Of a stretch of 64,000 nucleotides of DNA, positions 10,829-56,699 are shown piece by piece. The translations under genes were made by a program, and so were the position numbers. The stretch covers positions 25,352-89,351 of the forward strand of contig CAZUBQ010000002.1 of the NCBI GenBank assembly GCA_964618995.1, written 5' to 3'. The DNA comes from an uncultured Candidatus Poseidoniales archaeon (GTDB lineage: Archaea; Thermoplasmatota; Poseidoniia; Poseidoniales; Thalassarchaeaceae). The notes beneath the pieces are model-generated. The model was given only the letters and a program-made list of their open reading frames with translations, ran no database searches and was not told the DNA's origin. Position 1 is the stretch's first letter. Each line of letters opens with the position of its first letter.

Positions 10829-10916
10829 CCGCGTCACCACCAGCAATCCAGCGCGCGGGCGTGTAGGCAGGACATAGATTATCGCTGGCAAGGAAGGAGA
10901 ACCAAGTGGAGTTGGG

Positions 10917-11480
10917 GTGATGGACGACTGGGACCACCTGACTGACGAAGACTTGGACCGGTTCGCCCTAGCCGGAACAAGAGATGCGATGCAGGATGAG
11001 GAGAGCGGCGTCAGGGAGTACTCGAGCTTGATGCTCGCTGACGGGCTGTTGTACGCTGTAGGAGTGATTGCTGTCATGAATTCGGTGCTCGAAGCAGACA
11101 TGTTCCTGTTCTTCTGCGGATCGGGGCTGTGGCTCTGTTCACAATCCATCAACCGTTTTCGGCGATTACTACCCTTGTGGTTGCGTGCAGCCTTGAACAT
11201 GGAGATTGACCCTCCCGATTGGGAGATTCTGACATCCAAGCAGAAGAAGCGCCGTATCGTGACCGTGTTCGTTGCCGCTGCACTGTCCGGCCTCACCGCC
11301 TGGCGCTTCACGGTCGGGTTCGATGAGATCGCCACTCGCAGCGGAGTACCGTTCCACCTCGTCATCTTCACACTGGCTGGGATGTTGGCCCTGCTCGGAC
11401 TGCACTGGATCCGTTTGCTGATGGCTGACGAGGGCATCTACGAACCCCATTCCATGGAGCACGAAGAGCCGTGGGGCTGA
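10917..11480 (+). CDS. hypothetical polytopic membrane protein
   Basis: Acidic N-terminus, then four or more hydrophobic helices. Divergent from pcp. Confidence 0.5.
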   Translation: MMDDWDHLTDEDLDRFALAGTRDAMQDEESGVREYSSLMLADGLLYAVGVIAVMNSVLEADMFLFFCGSGLWLCSQSINRFRRLLPLWLRAALNMEIDPPDWEILTSKQKKRRIVTVFVAAALSGLTAWRFTVGFDEIATRSGVPFHLVIFTLAGMLALLGLHWIRLLMADEGIYEPHSMEHEEPWG

Positions 11481-18011: not shown

Positions 18012-21000
18012 TCAGCCGATGTTCGTCTTACGGTCATCCCAGCGTAGTGGAGATGGGCCGTTCCCACGGACGTTGTCGAGCATGTCGTTCTCAATCTCGA
18101 ACCAATCATTCAGCCAGTCACCATCGGAATCCCAGTTCAATGGGTTCGTCCCATCGGCTATCTGGTCACCATCCATGTCGATGCGCCACCAGCCCCACAC
18201 GTTCTCGCCGATTCCGGTGTTGGGGAAGTGGTACTGGTCACCGAACACCCTGCCGTACTCGTCGGTCCAGTCCCCCTTCACAAGGTGGATGTCATTGCCG
18301 TTGTCGATGGTCATGTAGTCCGGGTCCATGTCGTTGATGACCAGAGCATAGAGCTCATCAGTGGAATTGGTGCGATACATGCGCATGTAGTTCACCAGGT
18401 AGGAACTCGGCTGTCCCAATCCAAGCAGCGTCTCACGTAATTCCCACCATTCGCTGACCACCACGTTGATCGGTGGGCTGGTCCCAGCAATCGGTATCGG
18501 TGTCGAGCGCACCAGCGTGGGCGAGACCAACGAGGCGTTGGTGATGCCGTAGAACTCCTGGAAGTTGTTGTAGGAGGTGTAGGTACAACCGGCATTAGTG
18601 CATTCCCAATCTCCATCTAGGTCCGGATCCTCCATCGCATCGGCAGGGTCGGTAGCGTTGAACGTGTACCAGGTCCAATTCATCAATGGCCGTTCGAGCA
18701 GACCCATGCCGTTGTCGTGCAGCGGGCGCAAGACAATGCTGCCCAGCACTGTGTACTGCTCCCAGACAGTCTCGATTTGGGCGTACGATGACCAGTTGTC
18801 ATTAGATTCGTTCCAGCCCATCTTGTACTCGTACCAGTCGGGCAGCATGTCCCAGTCGGTGTCGTTGTCGAGCGCGTTGGTGCCGTACTTGAACACCTCT
18901 CGACCGTCGAGCAGCGCCCAGTCCCTCTCATAGCTGAGCGTGATGTTGTCGTCGCTCGGATCGCTGATGTGCGTGTAGGTGATGGCGTCTTCGTCGGTGT
19001 CGTTCAGGTCTGGTCGAGTGCCGTTGTCGTACTCCATCCAGTTGGTGAAGAACAGCGGAGAGTTGCCCGCTGATATCTGGTCCTCTATTCCCCCAGAGGT
19101 GAACACATGACTGCTCCATTCCCCTTGAGTTGCCACCCTGTCTCCGGAGGTGCGGTCGAACCAGCCGTCAAGATCAGGGTCGTAGTCGATGTCCAAGGGG
19201 TTCACAGGATTGGTAGCCCAGCGCCAGTCGTCGACTGGGAACACGGTCTGGTATGTCCCGTAGCAGAACTCCCATCCGTCGGGGATGCCATCGGAGTCAG
19301 AGTCGGAGTGAGTCGGGTCGGATATTCCGATGAGACTGAGATTGAAGTTGTCTGAATAAGCGGAGTTGATACGATTCATACGGTTGGAACTGGTGACATC
19401 CTTGGCCGCGAACGTTTGCACCAGTTGCGCGCGAGCATCCCCCCAAGAGAGACCCTGCTCATCCATGTAGGCGTTGATGGCGTCCTCACCGTAGTCGACG
19501 ATGCCGAATCCCGGCGGGAAGGAGTAGCGCATCGACTCCTTTCCGTAGACCCGGGCTTCATACTCGCGGAGGTTCGAGTAACGCTCGTCAGGCGCTATCT
19601 GTCCATCCTGGTTGCAGTCATACGAGTCGTCGTCACTATCGGCGAATACATCGGTGATGGTCAGCGGATTCATCGACCAACGGTTTCCGTCGAGGTCCCA
19701 TTCTGTGAACCAATACTCGTAGCCGTCGATCATGCCATCATCGTCGGTGTCATTGTTGGTCGGGTCGGTGATGCCGATCAATGTAGAGAAAAACGGTTGG
19801 GCTATGCCAGTTACTTCCCAATTCCAGTGTTGCTGTAATGCGATGAACGCTCTTCCAGATCTCCCTTCGAGCATGTCCTCGATGCGTTCGGAGAAATTCG
19901 CTGACTCGAGCACGAGCGCCTCTTCCCACATCTTGGGCGCGTCCGGTGGTGCAAGGCCACCGTTGAGGGGGTTCTCGTACGTCAGGTTCAGCTCCTGCAG
20001 GTCTGTGAGTGCGTCTTGGTCACCGTCCGCGCCTCCATCCCCAGCAACCAGAGGGTTGAGGGTCCAGTTGAGGAAAGACAGGTTCCACTCGGTGAACAGC
20101 AGTTCGATGCCATCGAGCAGGCCGTCACCGTCACTGTCTCCATTGTTCGGGTCGCAGGTCGGCCCGGACAGATTGTACTGGTCTGAGGACATGAACGCAC
20201 CGAAAGAGGGCGCGCCCACACCCTGAGCCCATGGCTGGAGTATGATCTGGTTGCCGCTCCTGAACGGGAACCATTGTGGCGAGGTCTGGTTGGCGTCGGT
20301 CTCAGACAAATTGGCTGAAATGGAGTTGTACTCCTCCCAGTTAGTCATGCCGTCGCCGTCCGGGTCGTTGAAGCGGTCGGACGAGTTCATCGGGTTGAGC
20401 ATCCACTGCGCATCGAAAGTGTCCCAGCGGGCGAACCATACCTCCCAGCCGTCAGGCATGCCATCAGTGTCGCTGTCGGCGGACAGTGGGTCCGATGCAC
20501 CCTCGTCAGTGAGGATGATTCCTGGAACATTGCTGATGGCATTGAAACCGGCACGCTCGCCGAACGGCAGCGTCGCACCGCTCGTCCAACTATCGTTCCA
20601 CAGAGAAGTGACGAAACCTGCGGGGAGCGGGGTGCCGTCATCGGTCATGTTCCCAAAGATCTGCTTGTCCTTGATGTGGTACTCCATCCAGTTGTTGAAC
20701 CACTCGTCCTCGGTCAACTCACCATCGTGATTAGCGTCGTAACCATCACCGTCGGGGTTGTTGAGGTAGTCACTGCCGTTGAGGGGGTTGATGCCTACGT
20801 TAGCCATGCTCCACACGCACGCGTAGCGAGCCTCCCATCCATCGGGAAGCGAGTCACCGTCCGAATCCGGATTGTTGGGGTCGATCTTCGTCCAGTTCTG
20901 TGCGGCCTCGGCACTCTCACCGTGGCTCGGCAGCCCGTTCGCCCGTGAATCGAGCAGAAGGAGTTCCCACTGGTATTCACAGTAGTTCGTCAGCCCATCG

Positions 21001-23759
21001 CTGTCCGCGTCCTCATCACGATCGGTCGGGTCCATCGGATCAAGGGTCCATTCGTTGCCGCCGTGGAAGGTGGTGCCAATCCAGCGCCGATTCTCAATCT
21101 CCCAACCATCTGGCATGCCGTCTCCGTCACTGTCCCACACGGTAGGGTCGGTCGCCCGGTCGGTGGCGCCCGAGGAGCCTGTGCCTTGCCAACCGAGCGC
21201 GTAGACCTGTTCGGCTATCTCGCCTTCGGAATCGTCACAGAGGTACTCACCAGTCTCGTAGTGACAGGTGAAATTCGTCTCGGAGAAGAACCAGCCCCAG
21301 TACTCCGCACCATCCAGCAGACCGTCACCGTCGGTGTCGGATAGACGTGGATCCGTCCCGTTGAAGCCTTCGGGAACTATCGCCAGATAGCGGAACTCAT
21401 CGAGATTGGTCCAGTTGTGGTCAGGGATATCATCCACGTAGGGATTGAGATTGATGCCATCGACGTCGAGGTCCTCGTCCCTGTCGAACGGATCGGTCGG
21501 GTCGAGACCATGCGCATTCTCCCAACCGTCAGGCATACCGTCGAGATCCGAATCGTTGTTGAACGGATTGATCAGCATGCGGTTGGAATAGCGTCCGGGG
21601 TCGAGGCCAGCGAACACAGTCTCATTGCCGTCCACGTTCATCACTGCTAGTTCAGTGACGAATCCGGGTATGCGGGTATGTCCGACGTCCACGCCGAGAG
21701 AACGTGCGTAGTCACCGTTGAGTACCCATGTGCCGAACGCGGAACCTATCAGCACCTCGTCGCCCAGAGGCAGAATGGCATGTACGTTGTTGGCACCCTC
21801 GGTGTTCCATTCATCGTTCTGCATCCGCTCGCGAGTGAAGGCGACCAGCGGGTCGGCGGCGTCCAGTAGTGAGAATTGGTGCACGCCGCCGGCGGTTCCC
21901 ACCCAGATGGTTTGGTGACTTGAGAGAGTTCCATCGGAAGCGCGTGGGCCGTCCACGACCAGTGTGCGGATGTTGGCTGAGTGCGACGCGTTGCTCGGGT
22001 CAGCGGCGCGCACGTAGAGTTCGGCCAAGGTCTCGTTGAAAATCCAGGTAATGGCGAAGTCGCCGCGCGCATCGGCGGTGTCTGCCACGAGCATCCCATT
22101 GTCAGTTCCGAGATACAGTTGCGGTGTCTGCCCATCCAAGGTCGCATGCGCCACTGCCTGTAGGGTGGCATTCTCCACCGCCAGCGCTTCGACCACCTTC
22201 TGCGCAGGAACCACCGCGCTCACCTGCCCGCTACCATCGACGCTGAACGTCCATGCGCTGCCAGCGGGTCCGCCGGCGAGCAGGTCGAGCGAGCCGCTTC
22301 CGGTGCTCAACCGGCTGAGCAGACTGACCTCTCCGAACTCAGCGGTGTTGACCGGCGCCGTAAGATCGAGCTTTCCGCTGTCGTCAAGGTTCCACACCGC
22401 TATGCTCTGGTTCAGTGCCAACACGAGGAATGATTCTCCTCCGCCATCTGTCCAATGGACCATGTCGTTGAGCTCCACCCCTGGTAGGAGTTTGTAGTGG
22501 TAGGTTGCTCCAGTGGCCGGCTCGAAAATGGTGACGCCACGCATTGAGGCCACGTAAATGAGGCCTAGTTCGGAATCGACATGCAACGCCCGAACATCAT
22601 GATGCAGGATGGCGGGAGATGTGCCTTGATCGTACATCTGGACTTCTGCGTCGACTTTACCCAACGGGGTGCTCTTCATGCCAGCGCGAACCCAGGTTCC
22701 TTGATCGATGAAGATGTAGTACTCCTCCAGATTGCTCAACGCCTCACCGAGGTAGATGGTAGCCCGCGAACCGTCTGGTAGCACCATACCGTCGCGATCG
22801 ATGTCCCAGCCGTCCTCGTCGCTGTCAAGCAGGCTGTCCGACTCGTTGCGCGGATCGAGCCCGAAGAAAACCTCCCAGCCATCGATGATACCGTCGCCGC
22901 GGTTTGACTTGGCCAACTCACGTGAGCCAGACCAGTAGAAGAAATCGGAGTCATTGCGCAATGGGTCGGTCCCCAGCCACCCGGGATATCCAGTGGGTCT
23001 TGTATCGAGGTCGGTGCAGGCGGGCATCAACTCGATGCAGCGCAGTCCGTGGAACTCGGTGGTCCAGTTCTCCCAGGCGCCGTAGTTGTACTCCTCTGCG
23101 TTGGTGTACCATTCGTGCACTTCTATGATACCATCACGGTCGACATCGAATCCGTCGCCACACCCCAGATCACCATCGATGCAGCGATCTGAGTCATTCT
23201 GACCATCGTACGAGTTCAACGGATCGAACGCGTTGCACTCCCAAGCGTCGCTCTCGTTGATGGAACCGGTCTCCATCATGCACATCCAAACCTCATAGCC
23301 GTCGGGGAGACCATCTCCGTCAGTGTCCGCCACACGCGGATCGAGGAACTCTCGTAGCCCCGATTCGCTCTCACCCGGGGGTTTGCCTGTCAGGCTTCTT
23401 CGGTTGGTGAAACAGTTGTCCAGGTCGTACGGCCAGCAATATTCTGCCAACGCGACCAAGCCATCGTTGTCGAAGTCAGACTGGTTGTCAGAACCATTCT
23501 CGAAATCGAGGCCATTGATGACGAGCGTTACATCGTCAAGAGTCAGATTAATCGCCTGGCTGAACGCCTCCTCGTGCAGGTCTGGGATGAGATCCTTATC
23601 GGTGTCCGTGATTGGTGGGCCTTCGCCCGTCGTGTCGTCTGGGTGGACCGATTCGACAGGTGAGTTGGGACGACTCTGCGACACGAAAACCATGCTGCCC
23701 AGAATGAGCAGAGTGACCAAGATGACAGTCTGCTTCCGGCGCACGAATAACACCCCCAA
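18012..23759 (-). CDS. giant secreted calcium-binding adhesin-like protein (1915 aa) with >10 thrombospondin-type-3-like D-x-D-x-DG-x-PDGWE repeats and a probable beta-propeller segment
   Basis: Signal anchor VILVTLLILGSMVFVS. Recurring DSDGDGMPDGWE, DTDGDGLPDGYE, DSDSDGIPDGWE and DTDDDGMIDGYE motifs. Trp-rich interrepeat modules. Confidence 0.8.
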   Translation of the reverse strand: MGVLFVRRKQTVILVTLLILGSMVFVSQSRPNSPVESVHPDDTTGEGPPITDTDKDLIPDLHEEAFSQAINLTLDDVTLVINGLDFENGSDNQSDFDNDGLVALAEYCWPYDLDNCFTNRRSLTGKPPGESESGLREFLDPRVADTDGDGLPDGYEVWMCMMETGSINESDAWECNAFDPLNSYDGQNDSDRCIDGDLGCGDGFDVDRDGIIEVHEWYTNAEEYNYGAWENWTTEFHGLRCIELMPACTDLDTRPTGYPGWLGTDPLRNDSDFFYWSGSRELAKSNRGDGIIDGWEVFFGLDPRNESDSLLDSDEDGWDIDRDGMVLPDGSRATIYLGEALSNLEEYYIFIDQGTWVRAGMKSTPLGKVDAEVQMYDQGTSPAILHHDVRALHVDSELGLIYVASMRGVTIFEPATGATYHYKLLPGVELNDMVHWTDGGGESFLVLALNQSIAVWNLDDSGKLDLTAPVNTAEFGEVSLLSRLSTGSGSLDLLAGGPAGSAWTFSVDGSGQVSAVVPAQKVVEALAVENATLQAVAHATLDGQTPQLYLGTDNGMLVADTADARGDFAITWIFNETLAELYVRAADPSNASHSANIRTLVVDGPRASDGTLSSHQTIWVGTAGGVHQFSLLDAADPLVAFTRERMQNDEWNTEGANNVHAILPLGDEVLIGSAFGTWVLNGDYARSLGVDVGHTRIPGFVTELAVMNVDGNETVFAGLDPGRYSNRMLINPFNNDSDLDGMPDGWENAHGLDPTDPFDRDEDLDVDGINLNPYVDDIPDHNWTNLDEFRYLAIVPEGFNGTDPRLSDTDGDGLLDGAEYWGWFFSETNFTCHYETGEYLCDDSEGEIAEQVYALGWQGTGSSGATDRATDPTVWDSDGDGMPDGWEIENRRWIGTTFHGGNEWTLDPMDPTDRDEDADSDGLTNYCEYQWELLLLDSRANGLPSHGESAEAAQNWTKIDPNNPDSDGDSLPDGWEARYACVWSMANVGINPLNGSDYLNNPDGDGYDANHDGELTEDEWFNNWMEYHIKDKQIFGNMTDDGTPLPAGFVTSLWNDSWTSGATLPFGERAGFNAISNVPGIILTDEGASDPLSADSDTDGMPDGWEVWFARWDTFDAQWMLNPMNSSDRFNDPDGDGMTNWEEYNSISANLSETDANQTSPQWFPFRSGNQIILQPWAQGVGAPSFGAFMSSDQYNLSGPTCDPNNGDSDGDGLLDGIELLFTEWNLSFLNWTLNPLVAGDGGADGDQDALTDLQELNLTYENPLNGGLAPPDAPKMWEEALVLESANFSERIEDMLEGRSGRAFIALQQHWNWEVTGIAQPFFSTLIGITDPTNNDTDDDGMIDGYEYWFTEWDLDGNRWSMNPLTITDVFADSDDDSYDCNQDGQIAPDERYSNLREYEARVYGKESMRYSFPPGFGIVDYGEDAINAYMDEQGLSWGDARAQLVQTFAAKDVTSSNRMNRINSAYSDNFNLSLIGISDPTHSDSDSDGIPDGWEFCYGTYQTVFPVDDWRWATNPVNPLDIDYDPDLDGWFDRTSGDRVATQGEWSSHVFTSGGIEDQISAGNSPLFFTNWMEYDNGTRPDLNDTDEDAITYTHISDPSDDNITLSYERDWALLDGREVFKYGTNALDNDTDWDMLPDWYEYKMGWNESNDNWSSYAQIETVWEQYTVLGSIVLRPLHDNGMGLLERPLMNWTWYTFNATDPADAMEDPDLDGDWECTNAGCTYTSYNNFQEFYGITNASLVSPTLVRSTPIPIAGTSPPINVVVSEWWELRETLLGLGQPSSYLVNYMRMYRTNSTDELYALVINDMDPDYMTIDNGNDIHLVKGDWTDEYGRVFGDQYHFPNTGIGENVWGWWRIDMDGDQIADGTNPLNWDSDGDWLNDWFEIENDMLDNVRGNGPSPLRWDDRKTNIG

Positions 23760-23978
23760 CTACGTTGGTGGTGTCTAACCACATTCTTTCCCTTATGATG
23801 CTGATGGAGCACAGTTCGGACACTGCGACTCGTCGCGGTGGAGCGAATACCACAGGTACTTCAGGTGAGAGTCCACAGGGTAACACGCGCTTCCCATGGA
23901 TTCGTTCGGAGGGTGGAGGGGTATCTGAAAACTGACGTCCTCTAATGTCAGCAAGAGGTGAATTGAAGGTGTGACTGT

Positions 23979-24806
23979 GTGCCCGAAGCGCTCGCGATGA
24001 CCCTACAACTGACCCATCTCGGAACAGGCAGCCGTGGCAACGCCACCTTGCTATGCTCTGAAGAGGCAAACATACTGCTGGACTGCGGATTCTCAGGCAA
24101 GGAGTTGGAACGTAGACTAGCCTTGCTCGAACTGAAGCCGGAAGACCTGGATGCGATCGCCGTGAGCCACCACCACAACGACCACTCCAAGGGGGCACTA
24201 ATCGCCAACCGTCGCTGGGGCATTCCTCTGCACATGAACTTCGATACCTGCGCCCGGCTTGGGCTTGACCCGGTCAACGACTGCACCCTGTTCGAAGCAT
24301 TGGGACGCGTCGAATTCGCCGACGACTTGTCGCTGCTGCCAGTACCTGTGGAACACGGAGATGCGGACAATGTCGGATTCATCGTCAGCCATCGTGGAGA
24401 GAGAGCTGCGGTGGTGACGGACCTCGGTTCATGGTCAACCGAATTGGTGCGTCACCTCGGCCAATGCACGCACATTTCGCTCGAGGCGAACTACGACCAC
24501 GGGCGCCTGTTGGGCGGCCCCTATCCTGACCGCTTGAAACAGCGTATCATGGGTCGCGGCGGACACCTGTCTAACGAGCAGGCGGCCGATCTGCTCTCTG
24601 AAGTCTGCGGCCCCGCCACGAGAAGTATCGTACTCTGTCATCTCTCAGAGCAGAACAACCAGCCACACCTCGCCGAGAGCGAGGTTCTGATGAACATAGA
24701 CAACCAGTTCGATGGGGATCTGTCCATCAGTCTGCAGTCAGGACCGGAATTCAGCCACTACCTGGGTCAGGTAGAGCCAGAACGACTCTCGAGTGCGCAT
24801 ATCTGA
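23979..24806 (+). CDS. MBL-fold metallo-hydrolase (metallo-beta-lactamase superfamily)
   Basis: AVSHHHNDHSKG (the HxHxDH zinc motif), plus downstream His and Asp ligands. ~270 aa. Confidence 0.75.
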   Translation: MPEALAMTLQLTHLGTGSRGNATLLCSEEANILLDCGFSGKELERRLALLELKPEDLDAIAVSHHHNDHSKGALIANRRWGIPLHMNFDTCARLGLDPVNDCTLFEALGRVEFADDLSLLPVPVEHGDADNVGFIVSHRGERAAVVTDLGSWSTELVRHLGQCTHISLEANYDHGRLLGGPYPDRLKQRIMGRGGHLSNEQAADLLSEVCGPATRSIVLCHLSEQNNQPHLAESEVLMNIDNQFDGDLSISLQSGPEFSHYLGQVEPERLSSAHI

Positions 24807-24858
24807 GCAGTAGGCTCAGGTGCTCTCCTCGGCGAAGTCATAAGAACGGCAGGAGAGA

Positions 24859-25902
24859 GTGGGGAACGTGCGCCAGCGGAGCGGCTCTCTCGCCCGTCGA
24901 GATGTTGGCGGTGTCAGCGAGATTCTCGGCGTGACGATGCTGCTGGCGATGGTCGTAACCGTGCTAGGAGCTGTGTTCGTGCTGCTCGCGCCATTGGTGA
25001 ACGACATCAACGACAATAGAGAGTGGGCAGCGGGCAGCGTGGCTGCCACTCAATTGAATGACAGAATCTTGGTCGTGGCTGATTCACCTGCAGGAACCGG
25101 CGTCGTGCATCACAGCGCGCAACTCGCCAATACAATCGACTGGCTTCCAAGGGCGGAAACTTGGACGATTGCTGCCGATCTGGCCGGAACTGACCGGGTG
25201 ACCGTACAACTGGACCCGGGCGAGGTAAATGTCACCAGTTTGAACCGCACCGCCAGCAACGTGACAGTTGTCACCGAGACTGCTACTTACCAATTCGACC
25301 TCGTGAACGGAACGGGAAACCTCAGCATCGGCAGCGCCATGCACGGGAAGGTCAGCGTGGAGGTGAAAGACATTCATGGGAGCACGATTCACCGCCTAGT
25401 GCGCATCTCCATCGACGGCATTCGCCTGAACAACCAGATGAGCGGGGGTGTATTCAGCGTGGATCTCGTGAATGGGGCGCGCATAGAGAAACTCCCCGGG
25501 CAGGGTATCGAAGTGCAGCAGTATCCGCGGCTGCGACATGATGTCCTCATCGACGGGACTCATCGCGTCAGTCTGGTACTGCTCAACATCGATGTCGGCG
25601 AAACCCTGACGCGGCACATGACCACTGTGAACCTCGGTTCGCTTGGAACCGAGGCGCTGTTCGAGGCTCAGTCGCGCAATCTCCTGCTGAAGTCTGAGTT
25701 CGTTACTGAAGCGACCATCGGCGCACGCTACACCCATCACTGGGCTGGAGACCACGATCTGTGGCTGGCCAGCGGACAGATAGACGACTACAATGGATTC
25801 GGCCCCCGCCAGCGCCTCTCTGGGCTCGATGGGCTGACACTGTTCCCTGCCGACGAGACGTTCACCCTTGAGGTCACGTTGCAGAAGGTGGTGGTGAGTT
25901 GA
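24859..25902 (+). CDS. protein with an archaeal type-IV-pilin/FlaF-FlaG-like N-terminal domain (class III signal-like)
   Basis: N-terminus RRDVGGVSEILGVTMLLAMVVTVLGAVFVLLA resembles the (K/R)G-VSEVIG-hydrophobic motif of archaeal pilin-like proteins. The rest is a beta-rich, Asn/Thr/Val-rich ectodomain. Confidence 0.55.
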   Translation: MGNVRQRSGSLARRDVGGVSEILGVTMLLAMVVTVLGAVFVLLAPLVNDINDNREWAAGSVAATQLNDRILVVADSPAGTGVVHHSAQLANTIDWLPRAETWTIAADLAGTDRVTVQLDPGEVNVTSLNRTASNVTVVTETATYQFDLVNGTGNLSIGSAMHGKVSVEVKDIHGSTIHRLVRISIDGIRLNNQMSGGVFSVDLVNGARIEKLPGQGIEVQQYPRLRHDVLIDGTHRVSLVLLNIDVGETLTRHMTTVNLGSLGTEALFEAQSRNLLLKSEFVTEATIGARYTHHWAGDHDLWLASGQIDDYNGFGPRQRLSGLDGLTLFPADETFTLEVTLQKVVVS

Positions 25903-28148
25903 TGCGTCGACGTATGGATGACGAAGCGGTCTCGGCAGCCATCGCGACCGTGCTGCTGTTCGCTGGTACGCTGGCCATCATTTCAGGAATGATGGTGACG
26001 ATCACTCCGATGGTCGACGAGATGCACGGCGCGGTCGAGCGCCAAGCGATGTCGAGCCAGATGACCGATCTGGCCTTGGAGACAGTGCGCCTGTCCGAGA
26101 CGGGGCTTCCGGGCGATTCCGCCACAGTCCAGTTGCGGCCACACACAGGGGAGTTGAACTGGGACCTGAAACACGGTGGGACCTGGTACTCAGCGAGCCA
26201 TGTCGAAGGCGGAACCCTTCGTCTGGATGGAGTACTGGATCTAGACGATCGAGCGCGCTTCCGCTATCCCACAAGCGAGGTTTCCTCAATCTGCTTCGAT
26301 GACCTGCGAGGAGGCCCGGGGGCCTTGTGGCAAGTGCGTCTGCCCGACATCGATGGGACGTGGGCAGCAACTCCCGTATCGACCTTGGAACTGCCTTTGG
26401 CGAGTACCAGTTTGAACATAGATAACGAGGGGGTCGAGACAGATGTCCGTCTCCCGTACGGGGTGTCATTGACTGGGAGTCTGTCCGCTGGAGGTGGTGA
26501 CACATGGTTACACGCCGATGGCCCCGTCAGAGTCCTTGCTTGGATGGGAGATGGAGGTGCTGCGCTCATCGCACCCGATCTGGCCGCACCGGCTGACGGC
26601 ACGGGACGTGGCTGGACGCTTCCCGTACCACCAGGTTCCGTCACTGCTCATCTTGTGACGGCACGACCTGCGAGCATCGAATGGACCATCGGCGAACAAT
26701 CCGGTAGTGGGGTAACTAGCGGGAGTACGGCTGCATGGAGTAACACCTGGCCTACAGGTTCAGGAGACGTACTCATGCTGCGCAGCAGCGCACCGGGACG
26801 ACTACTGCTGCAATGGGGGTCTGATGCCGCCGAATCCGGTTCGGCTGCTGGCTCGACCATGTGGCCGGATGATACAGGTTCTTTCGTCGGACGTAACTTC
26901 AGCCTACCAGCAGCGAGCGGCAGCCTGTTGCTGGAGAACTCTGCCACCCAGCCCGTCACAGCCAGCATCCACGGACTGTTTCACATGGTTCCCGCTCAGG
27001 GTCAGTTGCGTGTCGGCTGGACGAGCGGTAGCGGAGACATCACTGTGAGCGGCCCGGTGCAGTTGCACTGGCTCGCGGATGCGACCGGAGCACATGCCTG
27101 GCGTCCCGGAAGCCTCGACCTCGTGCGCGCTCTCGACACCGGTCAGACCAGCGGACTAGAGCATCGTATCGGAGTGCCAGTCAGCAACGGTGACATCGAC
27201 CTGTTGCTACAACCAGCCGCGCCTCAGACCCGAGTACGCCTGCTTACCAGCCTCTCTTCTGGGGAGGAATATGACGTACTGCTCAACCATACAGGCAGCA
27301 CACATACCGCCAGCCTTGCTGCCGGCGCATCGGGACTCGTGCGCATCGAAGTGAACAACAGCGACGCATTCCCTGACATGCCGATTCGCGTCTACGCCTC
27401 AAGTGGTACTGATGGATTAATCGAGGTACGCTCGGACGGCGAGGGTCGTTGCCTCCATCTGGGAGTCCGCGCGTCGGGTTGGATTGACGTAGATCTCCCT
27501 TGGAGCGATGTCAGTAAACTCGGAGACCGAGGGCTCAGGACAGCATGGGCTGATGGCACCCACATGCTGGGATTCGCTCTCAAGGTACGCGGCCCCCTAG
27601 GTGATTCCCCACACTCGGTTCTCGCTTCGGCATGGGGAGTTCATCTCCCACGGCTGAACTACGAGTTCAAAAGCAGCGTCAGCGGGATGGAGATCGGCTT
27701 CCGCGGTGGGTTCGTAGGTACCAACCATCCCGAATTTCACGCTGATGTAATCGTCCCGCCACCTTCGCGCGAAGGGCCGGGACCGCGTCTCGCAGTGACC
27801 ATGCAGATGACCATGCCAACGGCTGATTCAGCCCTTGGCAGCAGCGTGGTTGAACTTGAGTTCAACCTCGACAAGCGTGATCAGCTCACCTCCACCAAGG
27901 CATGGGAGATACGCAGAGGGTGGGACGGCCCCTATGGACCGGCAATCGCTGCAGACGCCTCTGAAGATCTCGCATTCTCGGATGATTGGCTCACCTTCCC
28001 TGGCCAACTCGACCTGCTCGACGACCATGTCGGTTGGGTGCAACTGGTTCCTTCAAGTTCCGAATCGATCTACCACGCTGGCGGGAAGCAGATCCTGTTC
28101 AACCTGCAACTAGCTCAGATTACATCGTCGATGGTGGTGGTCGTTTGA
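25899..28148 (+). CDS. large (749 aa) protein with a pilin-like N-terminal hydrophobic domain; candidate tip or minor-pilin-like adhesin
   Basis: N-terminus DDEAVSAAIATVLLFAGTLAIISGMMV. Its start overlaps the previous stop by 4 nt (operon-like coupling). Long Gly/Ser/Thr-rich beta region. Confidence 0.55.
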   Translation: MMRRRMDDEAVSAAIATVLLFAGTLAIISGMMVTITPMVDEMHGAVERQAMSSQMTDLALETVRLSETGLPGDSATVQLRPHTGELNWDLKHGGTWYSASHVEGGTLRLDGVLDLDDRARFRYPTSEVSSICFDDLRGGPGALWQVRLPDIDGTWAATPVSTLELPLASTSLNIDNEGVETDVRLPYGVSLTGSLSAGGGDTWLHADGPVRVLAWMGDGGAALIAPDLAAPADGTGRGWTLPVPPGSVTAHLVTARPASIEWTIGEQSGSGVTSGSTAAWSNTWPTGSGDVLMLRSSAPGRLLLQWGSDAAESGSAAGSTMWPDDTGSFVGRNFSLPAASGSLLLENSATQPVTASIHGLFHMVPAQGQLRVGWTSGSGDITVSGPVQLHWLADATGAHAWRPGSLDLVRALDTGQTSGLEHRIGVPVSNGDIDLLLQPAAPQTRVRLLTSLSSGEEYDVLLNHTGSTHTASLAAGASGLVRIEVNNSDAFPDMPIRVYASSGTDGLIEVRSDGEGRCLHLGVRASGWIDVDLPWSDVSKLGDRGLRTAWADGTHMLGFALKVRGPLGDSPHSVLASAWGVHLPRLNYEFKSSVSGMEIGFRGGFVGTNHPEFHADVIVPPPSREGPGPRLAVTMQMTMPTADSALGSSVVELEFNLDKRDQLTSTKAWEIRRGWDGPYGPAIAADASEDLAFSDDWLTFPGQLDLLDDHVGWVQLVPSSSESIYHAGGKQILFNLQLAQITSSMVVVV

Positions 28149-28633
28149 GAACAGATGATCTCGAGCAGGCGTCAATTCGCAGGGACGAGGCGGCGGCGGC
28201 GACTGAACTAGGATACGTGTTCACATTCCTTCTGGGACTGCTGTTCCTCTCGATGTTCAGCGTCTGGACCTGGGACCTCGAATCCTCGCGACAGAAGTCA
28301 TGGACGGCGGAGGCGATGGACCAGAACCTCGACGCAGTGGCTGCTGCAGTGGAACGGGCTGATTCGGCGAGTCACCTCGGGGATGACGTCACTTACGCGG
28401 AACCAGTGCCTCTGCTGCTCTCTCAGGCGACCCGGCTGGAACTCAGGATGCTCCTCGATGACGAGGGGCTGCTGCTGCAAGATGGGAGTCGAGAGTACAC
28501 TTCGCGCAGACCCATCAGCGCGGGGGCTGCGACCAATCACACTGGAGAGGTGTCCTTGAATGGAATCGATACCGTCTGGGTGGTGCTCCACGACGGAGAA
28601 GTGCGACTACAGGTTTCCCAACCGGGCATCTAG
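28145..28633 (+). CDS. small pilin-like N-terminal domain protein (start uncertain; the track's start at 27986 overlaps the previous gene by 160 nt)
   Basis: DEAAAATELGYVFTFLLGLLFLSMFSVW hydrophobic N-domain just after the previous stop. A TTG at ~28145 overlaps the TGA stop (TTGA coupling). Confidence 0.4.
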   Translation: MRTDDLEQASIRRDEAAAATELGYVFTFLLGLLFLSMFSVWTWDLESSRQKSWTAEAMDQNLDAVAAAVERADSASHLGDDVTYAEPVPLLLSQATRLELRMLLDDEGLLLQDGSREYTSRRPISAGAATNHTGEVSLNGIDTVWVVLHDGEVRLQVSQPGI

Positions 28634-28648
28634 GCTACAAGGAAGTCC

Positions 28649-31229: not shown

Positions 31230-34200
31230 TCACTGCTGGGGTGGGCCACCTGACTGGTCTGGAATCCATTGGTTACTTGCCGCATCCCACTGCCATCCAG
31301 GATAGGCCGGTTGCGCTGCTGGCTCTGCTGCTGGCTGTGCTGCAGCATGTGCCGCTGGTTGAGCAGCAGCCTGTTCCTGCGGCGCCTGCTTGCCCCACGC
31401 GTATACGTCCTCATCCTCTTGGGACTCCTCAGACATCAGTAGCGACTCGTCGTCCACCTCTTCGAACTCGACGAAGAAGAACACGAACACACCGCCGAGC
31501 AGAGCGACGATGACCACCAAGAGTAGCGCCCAGAGGATCCAACCGAATTTGCTCCCATCATCCGCGTCACCTACCTGGATGCTGTAGCTCGTTTCGGTCA
31601 TACGCTCATTGTCATAGTCGAACACCACGATGTTGCTGCCTCTCTCCAACTTGGATGCGGGCACGTCGATGGTCCAACTGCCATTTTCGGAGATTTGCGC
31701 ACTGCCTAGACGCATTGCGTTCAACCCAGAGCGCGCGACCACCTCAACGCCGGGTCTGCCGGTGCCAGCGAACGTGACTGTACCATCGACGTCGATGTTT
31801 CCGCTGCCAACTCGCTGGACACTGAAACTCACCGCGTTCACCACGAAATCGACTTCGAGCGAGTACGCCTTGCTGTTGTGTGGATCCTTGGCGAGGAACT
31901 TCATCCCCGAGCAGGACCATTCGGCCATGTCGGGTGAATAGAACGACATCGCAACCGGGTTGTAGGTCGCTTTGCCATTGACGTCTATCTGGATTTGCTC
32001 TGCACACTGGTCGTCATCGTACGTTTGCGGGTCATCCCACACCTCAATGCTCAGATCCTCGCCCTCAGGATCGTAGAACCAACCCGCGAGTTCGACACTG
32101 GCTCCATCACCACAGCGATCCGGAGCCTGACTGTTCTCTTCACAGAAGATGACGTGCGTGCGCTGCCAACTCTGCTCCTGAGTCACCGAGGAGCCGTCGA
32201 GCAAATCGACCGTCTCTCCCTCGGCGAGATATATTGGAGCGAGATTGTTGGCATCGGGTGGGTTATCGATGATAATCTCCCTCTGAACCCAATCACTGTA
32301 CAGTTGTCCGTCCTTGGAGCGCGCCTGCACGAGATAGTGGAAATCGTGCACCAGCCTGGAGGTGTCCCAAGTAGTCGACCATGCGCCGTTGGGAGCGATG
32401 GTGGTGATAACGGAATGAGGTCCAGGGGGGCGCTCATTCATGGCGTCCTGCGGATCAAGTATCCTGATCTCGACCTTGGAAACGTCACCATCCGTGTCGC
32501 GGGCGACGCCGGAGATGATCGTGTCCGGTCCGGCACGAACGACCTGCATGTCATAGGGTTCAATCAACGTGATGAGCGGGGGTGCATTCGTATTGTCGAT
32601 ATCGAGGGTGAGCTCAACCGGAGTACACTCACCAATCACCCCGCGGCAGAACGATGAGTCGGACGCCCAGATGCGGAACATCCAATCTGTACGCACTTTC
32701 GGCATCCCGGAGAAGTTCCAGTCCCACGACCAAATCGGCCCTCCTACCACTGGGACCGTTGTCGTGTTGAATACAGATGAACTGATTTCGAAGTGGATCT
32801 GATCGATGTCACTACCATAGACGCCGTTGTACGGGTCACTGGCTGTGCCGCTGAAGGTGACGATGCCCGAATCGAACAGCGAACCGTCCGTCGGCGTTAC
32901 CACGTGGATGACTGGGGCCACCGTGTTGAGTCTGATTGTTCGCGTCACGACTGGACTGTAGTCGACACCATCCCAGGCGCGGAACTCGAAGGTGTAGTCG
33001 TTCTCTGGTTCCAGTGACATGTCATACTCGAAGTGCCAGATGCGGAATGGCCTGTTATCACTGGTCACTTCACCGTTCGCGTTGCTGTCGTCCACCGCGT
33101 AACGGGTGTCATTCCACGAACTGGATGCGGGCGTCTTAATCTCGATGCGCTCGATAGCACCCTTCTGCTCCCAGCGCGCCTGCTCGTCGGAGTTGAATAT
33201 CCCTGTGCCGATGTTTCCATCCCAACCCGAGCCAGTGAAGTTCACCTGACGCTTGAAAGAATGTCCGTCGAGTTGGGTGACAGTGACTGTGGGAGCCATA
33301 TTGTCGAGGGAAATGACCTGGTCCAAGGTCCCTGTCAGGTTGAACCAGTGCTTCTCGTATCCCTTGCCGAACTTGTATGTGGTCACGTAGTACTTCGACA
33401 ACTCACGCGTCGCCGACCCCTGCTGGCAATCTGGGTCATCCGAGTCGTAAAGCAAATCTCCGTCGTTGTCGATTCCGTCGCTGCAAGAATTCTCACCCGG
33501 ATCCCCTGCGAAGTCGTTGGGGTTGTCACCATTGCCTCTGATGTCAAGATGGAAGTCCGAGGGGAGTGCCACCCACGGCGTGAAACCGAACGGATCGGTG
33601 TCCATATCGTACATGTCGTTGCCGTGCGCATCTTCCAGCAACACCGTCGCACCTCCGACGCGCACACCGTTGACGGTGGCACGGAAGCGCACCAGTTCTG
33701 CCCTCCTCAGTTGAACCGACCACGTGCCGGCAGCTTGGGCGATATGTGCTTTGGAGAGGTCGAAGTTCGTCAGGTTGGCGAAAGTCAACACCGTCGAGTT
33801 GTTCACCAGTTCGAGTGACAACGGGAAGTTGCGAGGCGGAATGATCTGAGTAGGGGCGAGGTCGAGTTTGTTGCCCCAACCGTTGTTCGGATCGGCGTCT
33901 GCACTAATCCAACGGAGTTCCATCGGATAAGTCGTGGACGAAGTCGGATTAGGAATCAACTCAGACTGAACCGTCACCGAACTCTCTGAGATGTTGTACA
34001 CCTGCGATACGTTGTTCCAAGTGTTACCCGAGAAAAAGGCGAGCGAACCGTATTGTGGACCGCTCGGCACATCGTGCTGAACGACTCGTGCGCCCACTCC
34101 TGCAGCAGTGAACGAGTTGTCCTGGACGTCGATGATAGCTCCAATCGCTCTGATGGCATCACCCTGAGCGTTGTTCACAGTGTTGCGATGGATGCTGACA

Positions 34201-35630
34201 CTGGAGCGGAACAGGTGGAACACAGGGCAGGTGAATTCACTGTCCCACACCTTCTCACTCTGACACGTGCCGCTCACGTTACTGAAGGTGTTGTCCGCGA
34301 ACCATCCCCGAGCAGGCTGTGGACCAGACACAGTCCAGCCCTGGTCCCCGAAGTGGTACTCGCCGAGAATGACCGGTTCGCGGTTGATGTCCTGGAATGT
34401 GTTGTTGTCAGCGATGATGTCAACATAGCCGACACCCCAGATTCCATTGTAGCCACCAATCGGGCCGATGATGTTGCGGCTGAACTTGACCTCTGCCAAT
34501 TCCGGGTAGTTTGACACGACCTGGATTCCAGACCCATCATCAGCACCCTCCATCACGTTGTCCTCGAAGGTCACCAGAGCGCCGTCATAGGCGGTGAGCG
34601 GTGAGTTGTCTGCGGTTGAAATGCTGTTATGGTTAGCAAACAGTTCGTAGTCGTAGCCAAGAATCGTTCGCCTTCCATTGACATCGATTCCTGTGCAATC
34701 AGTCTGGAGCGTGTTGCTTGATATCGTTCCCGCGGAATCAGTGTAGCGATAACCGTAGTCCGCGCTGGCAACCACACCGTGGTCGATGTTCAGGAACGAC
34801 TTCTGCGCCCAGACGACGTGGCGGCCGTTGTCCTGTGAACTACATCCAGAGGATGTGCCAGAGAACACGGGGCTGTCAAGAGTCACCGGGTTGTTTGGCG
34901 TGCCCGCGCCGTAAGCCTGGATGGCCTGTCCAAGCAGAGACTCGACGCGCTCCTCGCTGCCGACGGTGAACGTACCACCGACGAAATGTGGTGAGGCAAG
35001 ATCGAGGATGAGCACACTTGAGGTGTTGATATCCTCAAACAACAGCCCTGTCGATGTCGGGCTGGCACCATCGAAGACCAGCGCGCCGTAGCGCACCTCG
35101 CTGATGTCAGTGGCGAAGCGGGGGATTCCATACGCATTCTTGATCTCAAGGTGATTCAACTTGGTCTGCTGCACATCGATGGTATCCCTGATTAGGATGC
35201 CTTCGTAGCAAGAGGGGTCCGCGTTGTAGAGCGGCTGGCCGTTGGACGGGTTGTTCAGCCAGTAGCAGTTTCCGCGGGCCGACCAGTTGCTCGGATCGCT
35301 CCAAGTGAATGTGGCCTTGCTCGAGTTGCTCCCCATGCCATTTGCGCCACAGCCAGTGTCCGCCGCGCATAAGTTGCCCCTTACGTGTAGGAACGTACCG
35401 TTCGCCATGGTGACCGTAGTCCCGGGCTGGATGATCAGTTTCGCCCCGGGCGCCACCTCCACGTTACCGGTGACCGTGTGTGACCCCTGCCATATCTCGG
35501 TTCCAGATATGACTCCGCTCTGGGTTTCATTCGAAGCGACGGCGGTCGGCAGAGCCAACAACAGCGCGCTCAGCGAGGTGAGCACCATGAGGCTCACCAG
35601 CGTGAAACTCTTCATTCGATTGTCATTCAT
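31230..35630 (-). CDS. giant (about 1470 aa) surface protein with right-handed parallel beta-helix (PbH1) repeats, Ig-like/CARDB-like domains, one C-terminal TM and a Gln/Ala/Pro-rich cytoplasmic tail; probable start MNDNRMKSF, or MKSF at ~35615
   Basis: Signal peptide MKSFTLVSLMVLTSLSALLLALPTAVAS. Repeated N-x-x-x-G-x-A-I motifs typical of pectate-lyase-fold repeats. A DGIDNDGD calcium-type loop. TM ILWALLLVVIVALLGGVFVFFFV. Tail with AAAQPAAHAAAQPAAEPAAQPA and YPGWQWD...NQW. Confidence 0.8.
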   Translation of the reverse strand: MNDNRMKSFTLVSLMVLTSLSALLLALPTAVASNETQSGVISGTEIWQGSHTVTGNVEVAPGAKLIIQPGTTVTMANGTFLHVRGNLCAADTGCGANGMGSNSSKATFTWSDPSNWSARGNCYWLNNPSNGQPLYNADPSCYEGILIRDTIDVQQTKLNHLEIKNAYGIPRFATDISEVRYGALVFDGASPTSTGLLFEDINTSSVLILDLASPHFVGGTFTVGSEERVESLLGQAIQAYGAGTPNNPVTLDSPVFSGTSSGCSSQDNGRHVVWAQKSFLNIDHGVVASADYGYRYTDSAGTISSNTLQTDCTGIDVNGRRTILGYDYELFANHNSISTADNSPLTAYDGALVTFEDNVMEGADDGSGIQVVSNYPELAEVKFSRNIIGPIGGYNGIWGVGYVDIIADNNTFQDINREPVILGEYHFGDQGWTVSGPQPARGWFADNTFSNVSGTCQSEKVWDSEFTCPVFHLFRSSVSIHRNTVNNAQGDAIRAIGAIIDVQDNSFTAAGVGARVVQHDVPSGPQYGSLAFFSGNTWNNVSQVYNISESSVTVQSELIPNPTSSTTYPMELRWISADADPNNGWGNKLDLAPTQIIPPRNFPLSLELVNNSTVLTFANLTNFDLSKAHIAQAAGTWSVQLRRAELVRFRATVNGVRVGGATVLLEDAHGNDMYDMDTDPFGFTPWVALPSDFHLDIRGNGDNPNDFAGDPGENSCSDGIDNDGDLLYDSDDPDCQQGSATRELSKYYVTTYKFGKGYEKHWFNLTGTLDQVISLDNMAPTVTVTQLDGHSFKRQVNFTGSGWDGNIGTGIFNSDEQARWEQKGAIERIEIKTPASSSWNDTRYAVDDSNANGEVTSDNRPFRIWHFEYDMSLEPENDYTFEFRAWDGVDYSPVVTRTIRLNTVAPVIHVVTPTDGSLFDSGIVTFSGTASDPYNGVYGSDIDQIHFEISSSVFNTTTVPVVGGPIWSWDWNFSGMPKVRTDWMFRIWASDSSFCRGVIGECTPVELTLDIDNTNAPPLITLIEPYDMQVVRAGPDTIISGVARDTDGDVSKVEIRILDPQDAMNERPPGPHSVITTIAPNGAWSTTWDTSRLVHDFHYLVQARSKDGQLYSDWVQREIIIDNPPDANNLAPIYLAEGETVDLLDGSSVTQEQSWQRTHVIFCEENSQAPDRCGDGASVELAGWFYDPEGEDLSIEVWDDPQTYDDDQCAEQIQIDVNGKATYNPVAMSFYSPDMAEWSCSGMKFLAKDPHNSKAYSLEVDFVVNAVSFSVQRVGSGNIDVDGTVTFAGTGRPGVEVVARSGLNAMRLGSAQISENGSWTIDVPASKLERGSNIVVFDYDNERMTETSYSIQVGDADDGSKFGWILWALLLVVIVALLGGVFVFFFVEFEEVDDESLLMSEESQEDEDVYAWGKQAPQEQAAAQPAAHAAAQPAAEPAAQPAYPGWQWDAASNQWIPDQSGGPPQQ
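31290..31385 (-). repeat. coding low-complexity repeat (AAQPAA x4)
   Basis: CTGCTGGCTSTGCTG-type units on the plus strand. They encode the cytoplasmic tail of the beta-helix giant. Confidence 0.6.
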
Positions 35631-35699
35631 GTTCACATACTCCTGATGTGAGCGGCCGATGGAGGGACTGAATATAAGCAAGAAGGCTCGACGCAATAG

Positions 35700-35790
35700 T
35701 ATTTGTATCAATTATCACTGTTTGTATCAATATTTTCTCGCTAATTTTCCTTACACTGTATCAATTTCAATGAAATGTATCAATTATTAA
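35700..35790 (-). promoter_or_regulatory. AT-rich upstream regulatory island with four direct copies of TGTATCAAT (candidate transcription-factor binding sites) upstream of the beta-helix giant gene
   Basis: Copies at ~35704, 35723, 35757 and 35776, arranged as 19-bp-spaced pairs 53 bp apart. Local GC is ~28% versus ~62% for the window. A TATA-like CTTATAT lies ~45 bp upstream of the ATG. Confidence 0.5.
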
Positions 35791-55813: not shown

Positions 55814-56668
55814 CTAGTCGGCCTCAATCCCCGCTCGCTGTCGCAGCCACAGCCAGGTGGGGAGATTCACGGCAGCCACCGCCAGCAACCACCCCGCGAC
55901 ACACGCGCCCGCGAGGGTGAGCATGTTCGAGGACATCGGATAGAAGGCTGCGATCAACAGTGCGTACACCGAGACGGACATGGCGCCGAGCATCATCGGA
56001 CCGATTGCTCCAGTGGGAACTGCTTCACCTTGTGAAATCCATAGTGCCACCATGCTGGTGGTGAATATCGCCGGGAAGATGCTCATCAGTCCGCTCGCCA
56101 GCGTGTCCCCCGACCCGGCGAGATGGACAGCGATTCCGATTGCCAGAGAAGCAGCCAGCCCCCGCGCCACCAAGGTACCCGGCCCCACCGGATTATCTCC
56201 GGGAGGTGCAGGAACGTGCTTCCAGCAGGTGGCCACGCCGATGCTGACTCCCAGCGCCAGCGCCAGCCAACCGATGAGCAGTGAAGAGGTGCCTCGCCCG
56301 AGCAGGAAGTCCACGCCGAGCATCGCGAGCGCCGCGCAGGCCAACCAAACAGCGAGGGTGATGAAGGTGATGGCGACCAGTCGAGTGCCCAATCCCCAGC
56401 CGGGAAGCATGTCTGGAACGATGCGCCACAACCAGAGGAAGCCGGCATTCAGCAGCAACCCGACCGGAACGATGCCCATCGCACGTTGGAACTGCTCGAC
56501 ATCGCCGGCGGTGGCTACCCATATCCCCAATCCCGCAGGAACCAATGTCGAAGGCACGGTTCCCAGAACACCGCCATGAATCCCACCCCAACGCTCGATG
56601 GCAAGGGTGACCAGCACGGCCACAATTCCAGCGAACAACGCAGAGAGTAGCAGTGAGGTGCTCGGCAT
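55814..56668 (-). CDS. hypothetical polytopic membrane protein (8-10 TM; start MPSTSLL at 56668; the track extends to 56800)
   Basis: Continuous hydrophobic helices rich in Gly/Ala/Leu. The longer track start would overlap the neighbouring protease gene. Confidence 0.5.
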   Translation of the reverse strand: MPSTSLLLSALFAGIVAVLVTLAIERWGGIHGGVLGTVPSTLVPAGLGIWVATAGDVEQFQRAMGIVPVGLLLNAGFLWLWRIVPDMLPGWGLGTRLVAITFITLAVWLACAALAMLGVDFLLGRGTSSLLIGWLALALGVSIGVATCWKHVPAPPGDNPVGPGTLVARGLAASLAIGIAVHLAGSGDTLASGLMSIFPAIFTTSMVALWISQGEAVPTGAIGPMMLGAMSVSVYALLIAAFYPMSSNMLTLAGACVAGWLLAVAAVNLPTWLWLRQRAGIEAD

Positions 56669-56699
56669 GTTGACACCTCGCACGAACAGAAGACCTCGC

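Follow-up and report, generated by a model that had tools for sequence, protein, structure and literature searches.

Three consecutive genes in the 64,000-nucleotide stretch of DNA analysed here (the window, from contig CAZUBQ010000002.1 of an uncultured Candidatus Poseidoniales archaeon) encode proteins whose pilin-like nature is well supported by their predicted N-terminal motifs, by the conservation of these motifs among homologues and by links to known profile families. The genes, called g2, g3 and g4 below, lie on the plus strand behind the gene for a metallo-β-lactamase (MBL)-fold hydrolase and are translationally coupled to one another in the map of open reading frames (ORFs), so that the four-gene unit covers positions 23979-28633. 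An initial annotation had described this run of four genes and had assigned archaeal pilin-like N-terminal domains to the last three products; all four ORFs are present on the plus strand, and motifs, conservation and profile links support N-terminal modules of the class III (type IV pilin-like) type. The genes are unannotated and unmentioned in the literature on Marine Group II (MGII, the Poseidoniales), although the kind of protein is already known as archaeal class III/type IV pilin-like and falls partly into existing DUF families. We propose that the trio is a minor-pilin-like module of small, medium and large subunits in a 1:1:1 ratio, which would present the g3 ectodomain at the cell surface; our own opinion on this proposal is evenly balanced. 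The features concerned are as follows.

23760-23978, no strand: divergent intergenic region between the gene for a giant 1915-amino-acid surface protein (minus strand) and the MBL gene
23979-24806, plus strand: MBL-fold metallo-hydrolase; longest ORF 275 amino acids, database call from ATG 23997 with 269 amino acids
24859-25902, plus strand: g2, pilin-like protein; 347 amino acids, database call from GTG 24868 with 344 amino acids
25899-28148, plus strand: g3, large pilin-like protein; 749 amino acids, database call from ATG 25902 with 748 amino acids
28145-28633, plus strand: g4, small pilin-like protein and DUF7266 relative; start TTG 28145, 162 amino acids
28649-31198, minus strand: STAND-type regulator with N-terminal helix-turn-helix (HTH), AAA_16/AAA_22 nucleoside triphosphatase domain and C-terminal TPR array, convergent with g4

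Each of the three proteins contains exactly one hydrophobic segment on the Kyte-Doolittle scale, located at the N-terminus behind a short charged leader, and the peptides quoted in the initial annotation for this arrangement were all recovered. The leader of g2 ends in RRDVGG, and class III cleavage is predicted before Val (codon 24913), which would leave a protein beginning with VSEILGVTMLLAMVV. The leader of g3 is MRRRMDDEA, with predicted cleavage before Val (codon 25929) and VSAAIATVLLFAG following it, and the leader of g4 ends in RRDEAAA, with predicted cleavage before Ala19 (codon 28199) and ATELGYVFTFLLG following. All three proteins therefore combine a charged leader, Gly, Ala or Ser at position -1 and a hydrophobic helix of approximately 20-30 residues.

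The same pattern is retained among the homologues, of which 49 g3 sequences (31-92% identity), 33 g4 sequences and 8 g2 sequences were aligned. With an arrow for the predicted cleavage position, the family motifs are leader-[G/A]↓VSE(I/V)(L/I)GVxM(L/M)LAMV in g2, (D/E)(D/E)[A/G/S]↓VSAA(I/V)ATVLLF(A/G)G in g3 and A[A/G]↓(A/S)(T/V)E(L/I)GY(V/I)FTFLLG in g4. Position -1 of g3 is occupied by Ala in 43 sequences, Gly in 4 and Ser in 2, and it is followed by Val at +1 and Ser at +2 in 49 of 49. Position -1 of g4 is Ala in 30 sequences and Gly in 3, and Glu at +3, Gly at +5 and Tyr at +6 (Glu21, Gly23 and Tyr24) are invariant. Distant relatives of g4 have a clear Gly at the aligned position -1 (TEG↓TVEIGY, ESG↓TVEVGY and KNKG↓AVEIGY). 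The N-terminal helix is the best-conserved 30-residue window in each of the three families, a pattern of conservation that is the hallmark of type IV pilins and differs from that of ordinary membrane anchors.

One residue of these motifs deserves separate mention. Glu at +3, which is residue 21 both in g2 and in g4, is found in all six g2 sequences with an aligned N-terminus and in 33 of 33 g4 sequences. It recalls the essential Glu5 of bacterial type IV pilins and the Glu-Tyr pair of Flp pilins; to our knowledge, such a conserved glutamate is unusual in archaeal pilins.

The profile matches range from weak to threshold level. In Pfam, g2 of the window matches DUF7289 (PF23960) with E=0.002 and 18 bits over profile positions 2-60 of 238, g3 matches it with 14.2 bits over positions 2-72 of 238, and an orthologue of g2 from MGIIa reaches 28.0 bits (cutoff 27) over positions 2-77 only. 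The similarity does not extend over the full profile: the N-terminal pilin module is shared with DUF7289, the ectodomain is not. Against Pilin_N (PF07790; cutoff 25.2 bits), orthologues of g2 remain sub-threshold with scores of 23.5 (E=1e-4), 20.3 and 14.5 bits, and each alignment starts at the first profile position, where cleavage is predicted; g2, g3 and g4 of the window have no Pilin_N match in Pfam at E≤1. The small protein g4 aligns with nearly the whole of DUF7266 (PF23928; positions 2-143 of 145) with 19.6 bits and E=8e-4, below the cutoff of 27.6. However, many MGIIa orthologues of g4 carry PF23928 (31.9 bits in P0142), one of them being named 'DUF7266 family protein' at NCBI, and those that carry it are 44-46% identical to g4 of the window. 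The predicted membership of g4 in DUF7266 accordingly holds by transitive homology only. The canonical members of DUF7266 and DUF7289 lie, we presume, in haloarchaeal pilB/pilC loci; these and related names are unmentioned in the full-text literature that was searched.

The N-termini of g2 and g3 are homologous to one another (hhalign 88%, E=3e-6), and profile-profile comparison sets g4 apart as a separate lineage. The trio had also been labelled FlaF-FlaG-like. This label was dropped, as no Pfam or NCBIfam match to archaellin, FlaF or FlaG families was found for the three proteins at E≤1 and no fla genes are present in the window or in the related loci. The g3 family comprises 78 homologue clusters, down to 31% identity, whose source names are only Marine Group II/Poseidoniales or unclassified Euryarchaeota/Thermoplasmatota archaea. 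A g4 profile searched against 1.84 billion representatives gave 61 matches, nearly all of them MGII fragments; a match to the 2796-residue P0250 was judged spurious, that protein being a DUF5649 repeat protein. Searches of plasmids with g4-type and g2-type proteins (tblastn) gave chance bacterial matches or none, a contig search with a single-sequence query gave five close relatives only, and a homologue search from the distant relative P0249 gave three proteins and one 11-kb contig.

Structure prediction provides a further line of evidence. The AlphaFold2 model of g4 (33-sequence alignment, pLDDT 87.6) has a helix at residues 3-76 followed by seven strands, and that of g3 (49 sequences, pLDDT 85.5, pTM 0.86) has a helix at residues 8-68 and then an all-beta part made up of several domains, about 680 residues long. 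Both models thus show an extended N-terminal helix of the pilin type joined to a beta-rich domain, and as predicted structures they match the "lollipop" plan of pilins. The ectodomain of g3, about 680 residues long, is without a family and has two invariant cysteines (Cys132 and Cys518), and the ectodomain of g2, about 300 residues long, has an invariant N-x-T-A sequon (Asn129/Thr131/Ala132); these residues would fit an extracellular, glycosylated location. The earlier remark that the middle protein is far larger than a structural pilin agrees with its very large predicted all-beta ectodomain, which is compatible with a role as tip or adhesin.

The gene calls were confirmed by an exact-sequence look-up, which found identical proteins in GenBank (AIF03711-AIF03714, fosmid KM3_169_C11), where g2, g3 and g4 are annotated as "hypothetical protein" only. 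At the g2/g3 junction, GTTGATG, the stop codon TGA (25900-25902) shares 4 nucleotides with a TTG start or, alternatively, 1 nucleotide with the ATG at 25902. The g3/g4 junction, TTTGAG, is an overlap of the TTGA type; the mechanical ORF of g4 begins at 27986 and its coupled start is the TTG at 28145. The gap between the MBL gene and g2 is 52-61 nucleotides. Of the two kinds of coupling previously named, the TTGA type is therefore found in the window (TTGA and TGATG junctions), whereas a literal ATGA is not; orthologous loci do contain overlaps of the ATGA type, for instance at g3/g4 in L001 and at MBL/g2 in L016, and start/stop overlaps are kept across the related loci. The intergenic region at 23760-23978 presumably contains the promoter of the four-gene unit, to judge from its position only, and the divergent arrangement on the 5' side of the MBL gene recurs in those related MGII-type loci whose contigs include the upstream region.

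Conservation of the unit was followed in 11 related loci, which represent nine distinct places (contexts L001/2, L003/4, L010, L011, L013, L014, L015 and L016/17). Wherever the contigs reach, the order is constant: two genes for giant proteins on the minus strand, MBL-g2-g3-g4 on the plus strand, the STAND gene on the minus strand and then further surface genes, namely those for a Big_7/beta-helix protein of about 1450 residues, an S8 peptidase and an STT3 fusion of about 3200 residues, all on the minus strand. The layout MBL-g2-g3-g4 with a convergent STAND gene did not vary among the MGII-type loci examined, even where the identity of g3 falls to 31%, and the trio is present both in Thalassarchaeaceae (MGIIb) and in Poseidoniaceae (MGIIa). 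The g3 of the window is closer to homologues from Thalassarchaeaceae (42-46% identity) than to those from Poseidoniaceae (31-33%). That the organism is an archaeon follows from the CDP-archaeol synthase and the DUF5591 protein that the window encodes.

A different context, and the one informative outgroup, is provided by L012, an archaeal contig of 11 kb with 40% GC. Here the gene for a 1177-residue protein with a textbook class III N-terminus (GGREG↓VSPIVAIIILL) shows translational coupling to a gene of the DUF7266-like kind (KNKG↓AVEIGYIFTF), and the pair is followed by two more secreted proteins and then by housekeeping genes. We take L012 to be non-MGII, as its flanking genes are unlike the MGII layout. 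The pairing suggests that a large pilin-like protein together with a DUF7266-like protein is the conserved core.

The MBL-fold hydrolase that had been placed ahead of the trio was recognised without difficulty (Lactamase_B_2 E=5.9e-15 and Lactamase_B E=1.4e-12 in Pfam) and has an HHHNDH metal motif. It has neither a transmembrane (TM) segment nor a signal peptide, and is presumably a cytoplasmic product of the first gene of the unit. Its NCBIfam matches are weak and N-terminal only (RNase Z and PhnP), and its public names are 'MBL fold metallo-hydrolase' or 'phosphoribosyl 1,2-cyclic phosphodiesterase'. Seven related MGII-type loci extend far enough to show the MBL gene, and in all of them it immediately precedes g2; in L016 its stop codon overlaps the ATG of g2, from which it is argued that the MBL gene is a part of the unit.

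The STAND regulator matches TPR_12 (E=1e-27), TPR_MalT (E=1e-12) and HTH_Crp_2 (E=1e-3) in Pfam, and AAA_16 with E=8.5e-7 and 30.1 bits, which is under the 32.6-bit cutoff. Its position and orientation are unchanged in all related MGII loci. It abuts the trio tail-to-tail, as stated earlier, its 3' end being 15 nucleotides from the stop codon of g4. Across the loci, the stop codons of the two genes are 0-15 nucleotides apart (28634-28648 in the window), and in L010 they overlap. This spacing leaves no space for separate terminators, and transcriptional interference or antisense read-through is therefore possible.

How could such a set of proteins work? Under our proposal, the precursors would insert into the membrane through the conserved N-terminal helix, which would keep the charged leader within the cell and place the beta-rich domain outside. 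In cells that have a class III signal peptidase, this enzyme would cut after the small residue ([G/A/S]↓VS in g2 and g3, [A/G]↓(A/S)TELGY in g4). The three helices may then pack as a 1:1:1 bundle, in the manner of minor-pilin initiation or tip complexes (GspI-J-K; EpdA-C of Methanococcus), and this bundle would expose the predicted all-beta ectodomain of g3, about 680 residues long, on the cell surface. An ATPase/platform pair encoded elsewhere could extend or extrude the module on a filament, and the MBL and STAND proteins may have some role in the process.

A number of observations weigh against this proposal. The proteins of the window are themselves under the Pfam gathering thresholds, and hmmsearch with the g2, g3 and g4 alignment profiles against PDB sequences gave nothing relevant. 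Foldseek searches of the g3 and g4 models against the PDB recovered neither a pilin nor an archaellin; the matches were either not significant or generic (beta-clamp, vicilin/cupin and complement C5, with TM-scores of approximately 0.1-0.2), an outcome that is uninformative given the poor alignment of long helices and of beta proteins with several domains. Position -2 is acidic, Asn or Gly rather than the usual Lys or Arg. When a FlaFind-type regular expression with a hydrophobicity filter was run on 217 stop-free segments of at least 100 amino acids from the six frames of the window, g3 and g4 were selected and, apart from them, nothing but one TM helix internal to the STT3 giant, which speaks for more than a chance resemblance. 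Class III-type prediction thus succeeded for g3 and g4 and failed for g2 under the strict expression, because g2 has Glu at +3 and Gly at -2, though the g2 family does match the Pilin_N and DUF7289 profiles. Moreover, a neighbourhood of about 25 kb is syntenic throughout MGII, and adjacency in a neighbourhood frozen to this degree is weak functional evidence within the group.

The assembly machinery is also missing from the locus. The search for it covered about 84 kb around the genes and 22-kb related loci, the flanks beyond the window being read on a 116,908-bp metagenome scaffold that carries the same proteins. No T2SSE (PilB/FlaI), T2SSF (PilC/FlaJ) or A24 peptidase domain was detected in window ORFs of at least 180 amino acids, in line with the initial annotation, which had seen no PilB/PilC-type ATPase or platform gene in the window; none of these domains is on record for the called genes up to 10 kb beyond either end. 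A pilB/pilC pair accompanies the trio in none of the 11 related loci and is not found on L012, and the operon contains no candidate for a major pilin. According to published counts, FlaI, FlaJ and FlaK number 2, 2 and 1 in four MGIIa clusters and 0, 0 and 0 in three of four MGIIb clusters (PMC6864105, Table S4), and the trio is present in MGIIb; an archaellum operon is found in all MGIIa and in only some MGIIb (PMC6461757, PMC6336850). The idea of a pilus accessory set is weakened by the lack of pilB/pilC in the related loci and by the gaps in MGIIb, and the pilin-like reading of the proteins themselves is untouched by this. It is common for ATPase/TadC modules of archaea to rely on pilin sets that are encoded in trans (PMC4858521), and the absence of machinery from the locus is for this reason not decisive. 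If, however, the trio persists in MGIIb genomes that have no motor, it must function without polymerisation.

An observation of its own concerns the minus-strand ORF at 55814-56800, which has 8 hydrophobic segments and contains GSGD within a late helix; its likely start is Met45, and the database call gives 284 amino acids. The idea that this ORF might encode a hidden GxGD prepilin peptidase was rejected, since neither Pfam nor NCBIfam gave a match and the G-x-G-D-[VFA]-K context is lacking.

The missing motor leads to the possibility that the trio is a pilin-derived static complex, N-terminally anchored like FlaF/FlaG, unpolymerised and possibly uncleaved, which would serve as a stalk for giant glycoproteins or for an S-layer-like coat. 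We give this explanation, the main rival of our proposal, some tentative credence. The trio occurs in both MGII families, FlaI, FlaJ and FlaK are reported to be missing from most MGIIb genomes (PMC6864105, PMC6461757, PMC6336850), and no locus examined links it to an ATPase or platform gene; in addition, its leader is without Lys or Arg at -2 and it sits in a conserved cell-surface island (giants of 1825 and 1915 residues, a 1493-residue Big_7 protein, S8 subtilases and a 3271-residue STT3/AglB fusion). However, the small residue at -1 and the Val-Ser pair after it (+1/+2) persist over 31-92% identity in a way that resembles a processing site kept by selection, and the proteins have no profile similarity to FlaF or FlaG. 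The absence of machinery was, moreover, taken from KEGG annotation of incomplete metagenome-assembled genomes in which the presence of the trio is not established, and the uniform synteny of MGII makes the surface-island context weak evidence. A more far-reaching version, which we find rather doubtful, would have the trio as a heterotrimer independent of motor and prepilin peptidase, a core component of the MGII envelope, also in streamlined MGIIb lineages that no longer have FlaI, FlaJ and FlaK, and a static stalk that organises the neighbouring giant acidic glycoproteins, with the coupled MBL hydrolase acting in its biogenesis. An export or import function is another thought: the trio could be the tip of a short piston-like pseudopilus (type II secretion-like or competence-like) that would send out the neighbouring giants or hydrolases, or else take up DNA or nucleotides, and the MBL protein would then be a nuclease or phosphodiesterase on the cytoplasmic side. 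The small/medium/large set does resemble GspI-J-K, the MBL gene is always first in the unit and its stop overlaps the start of g2 in one lineage, and MBL folds include nucleases (compare the weak N-terminal matches to RNase Z and beta-CASP). Class III-signal proteins are also known to have been adapted to uptake, the bindosome being an example (bioRxiv 10.64898/2026.04.22.720090). Yet no channel, ATPase or platform gene is linked to the trio, and the MBL protein is without a membrane segment or a specific family. We know of no archaeal type II secretion system (T2SS), and as an idea by analogy alone this is very improbable.

The remaining explanation would remove the pilin connection altogether, making g2, g3 and g4 ordinary Sec/Tat-exported or signal-anchored products, three unrelated surface proteins with a chance resemblance to pilins. 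The sub-threshold Pfam scores of the window proteins, the Foldseek searches without a pilin match and an RRR stretch in the g3 leader could be cited in its favour. Nevertheless, we find it barely credible, given that the hydrophobic run of 23-30 residues lies within a predicted helix of 60-75 residues and does not look like an h-region of 7-15 residues with an AxA site; neither a twin-arginine consensus nor an AxA after an h-region was seen, as read from the sequence with no dedicated predictor. The N-terminus is the most conserved segment, the N-termini of g2 and g3 are homologous, and orthologues reach the thresholds of DUF7289 and DUF7266 and nearly that of Pilin_N. Finally, the three genes are coupled and in tandem, and no other gene of the window has such an N-terminus.

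The closest known counterparts of the proposed minor-pilin-like module are the euryarchaeal pilin sets (Pilin_N; PMC4858521), which likewise have a short leader, a small residue at -1, a helix of the VS-x-x-I type and a beta-rich domain, and of which several distinct genes stand in one operon, often away from the ATPase/TadC genes. The overlap of g4 with the whole DUF7266 profile, and of the g2 and g3 N-termini with DUF7289/Pilin_N, brings the trio near these sets. It differs from them in its acidic position -2, the familyless ectodomain of g3, its scores below the cutoffs and its fixed MBL gene partner. EpdA-C of Methanococcus are three class III-signal minor pilins distinct from the major pilin MMP1685 (PMC3875500), and are similar in this respect. 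In contrast to the trio, Epd pilins have Gln at +1 and none of them is 750 residues long. The epd genes are grouped and stand apart from the assembly ATPase; their locus has its own prepilin peptidase, and their organism has a demonstrated pilus and motor.

Bacterial tip complexes (GspI-GspJ-GspK of the T2SS; FimU-PilVWX with PilY1 of the type IVa pilus) are similar by a works-like analogy only. They consist of small, medium and large subunits in fixed stoichiometry, the largest with an extra domain, whose helical bundle starts or caps the filament. Unlike the trio, they belong to another domain of life, show no detectable homology to it and have genes tied to the ATPase/platform genes; bacterial pilins also have Glu at +5, compared with +3 in g2 and g4. 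FlaF and FlaG, proteins of about 150-165 residues with an N-terminal helix and a beta-sandwich, are membrane-anchored and face the S-layer, and g4 has a comparable size and predicted architecture. The trio differs from FlaF/FlaG in lying outside the archaellum operon; moreover, each of the two MGII families has the trio, whereas the occurrence of the archaellum in MGIIb is patchy.

Marine Group II are the most abundant planktonic archaea of the surface ocean and are uncultured, and we know of no experimental work on their cell envelope. In published MGII genome surveys, the sole attachment device discussed is the archaellum operon, whose distribution is patchy. The pilin-like modules give a first functional handle on three "hypothetical" proteins, and the set is present in every MGII lineage examined. 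On the one hand, if the trio persists in MGIIb without any motor or peptidase, it would be a case of pilin-like proteins working outside the canonical assembly pathway. On the other hand, if it does not persist in motor-less MGIIb, an unrecognised pilus would be indicated, with relevance to particle attachment and carbon remineralisation.

The genes around the unit have features of their own. The two giant proteins upstream, of 1825 and 1915 residues (12398-17875 and 18012-23759, both minus strand), are acidic (15-18% Asp+Glu) and have N-terminal signal-like helices and no Pfam match; both are retained beside the MBL gene in those MGII loci that extend upstream. The 1915-residue protein contains 8 exact DxDxDGxxDxxE motifs (thrombospondin type 3-like, calcium-binding) and 41 sequons. 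Beyond the STAND gene, the 1493-residue surface protein (31230-35711, minus strand) has a Big_7 domain and a TM helix at the C-terminal end, and its cytoplasmic tail is rich in Pro, Gln and Ala; its orthologues also match Beta_helix, and it is always located between the STAND regulator and the S8 subtilase. The 3271-residue protein (37221-47036, minus strand) has 14 or more hydrophobic segments, and its STT3 domain (AglB oligosaccharyltransferase; residues 439-777) is fused to a huge extracytoplasmic region in which a CarboxypepD_reg domain and 65 N-x-S/T sequons are found. This unusually large AglB fusion is kept at about 3200 residues in the MGII loci that reach it.

Two further genes lie more distantly. 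At 9764-11437 (minus strand), Peptidase_C15 (pyroglutamyl peptidase) and NUDIX domains are joined in one ORF; the 557-residue ORF is over-extended, and the fusion is regarded as real because the database gene call of 354 residues holds both domains. Approximately 3 kb past the right end of the window (L018, 13438-18315), a 1625-residue protein combines LTD (lamin-tail) and PLDc_2 (phospholipase D-like nuclease) domains; it adjoins nucleoside salvage genes (thymidine phosphorylase and cytidine deaminase) and is possibly an extracellular nuclease.

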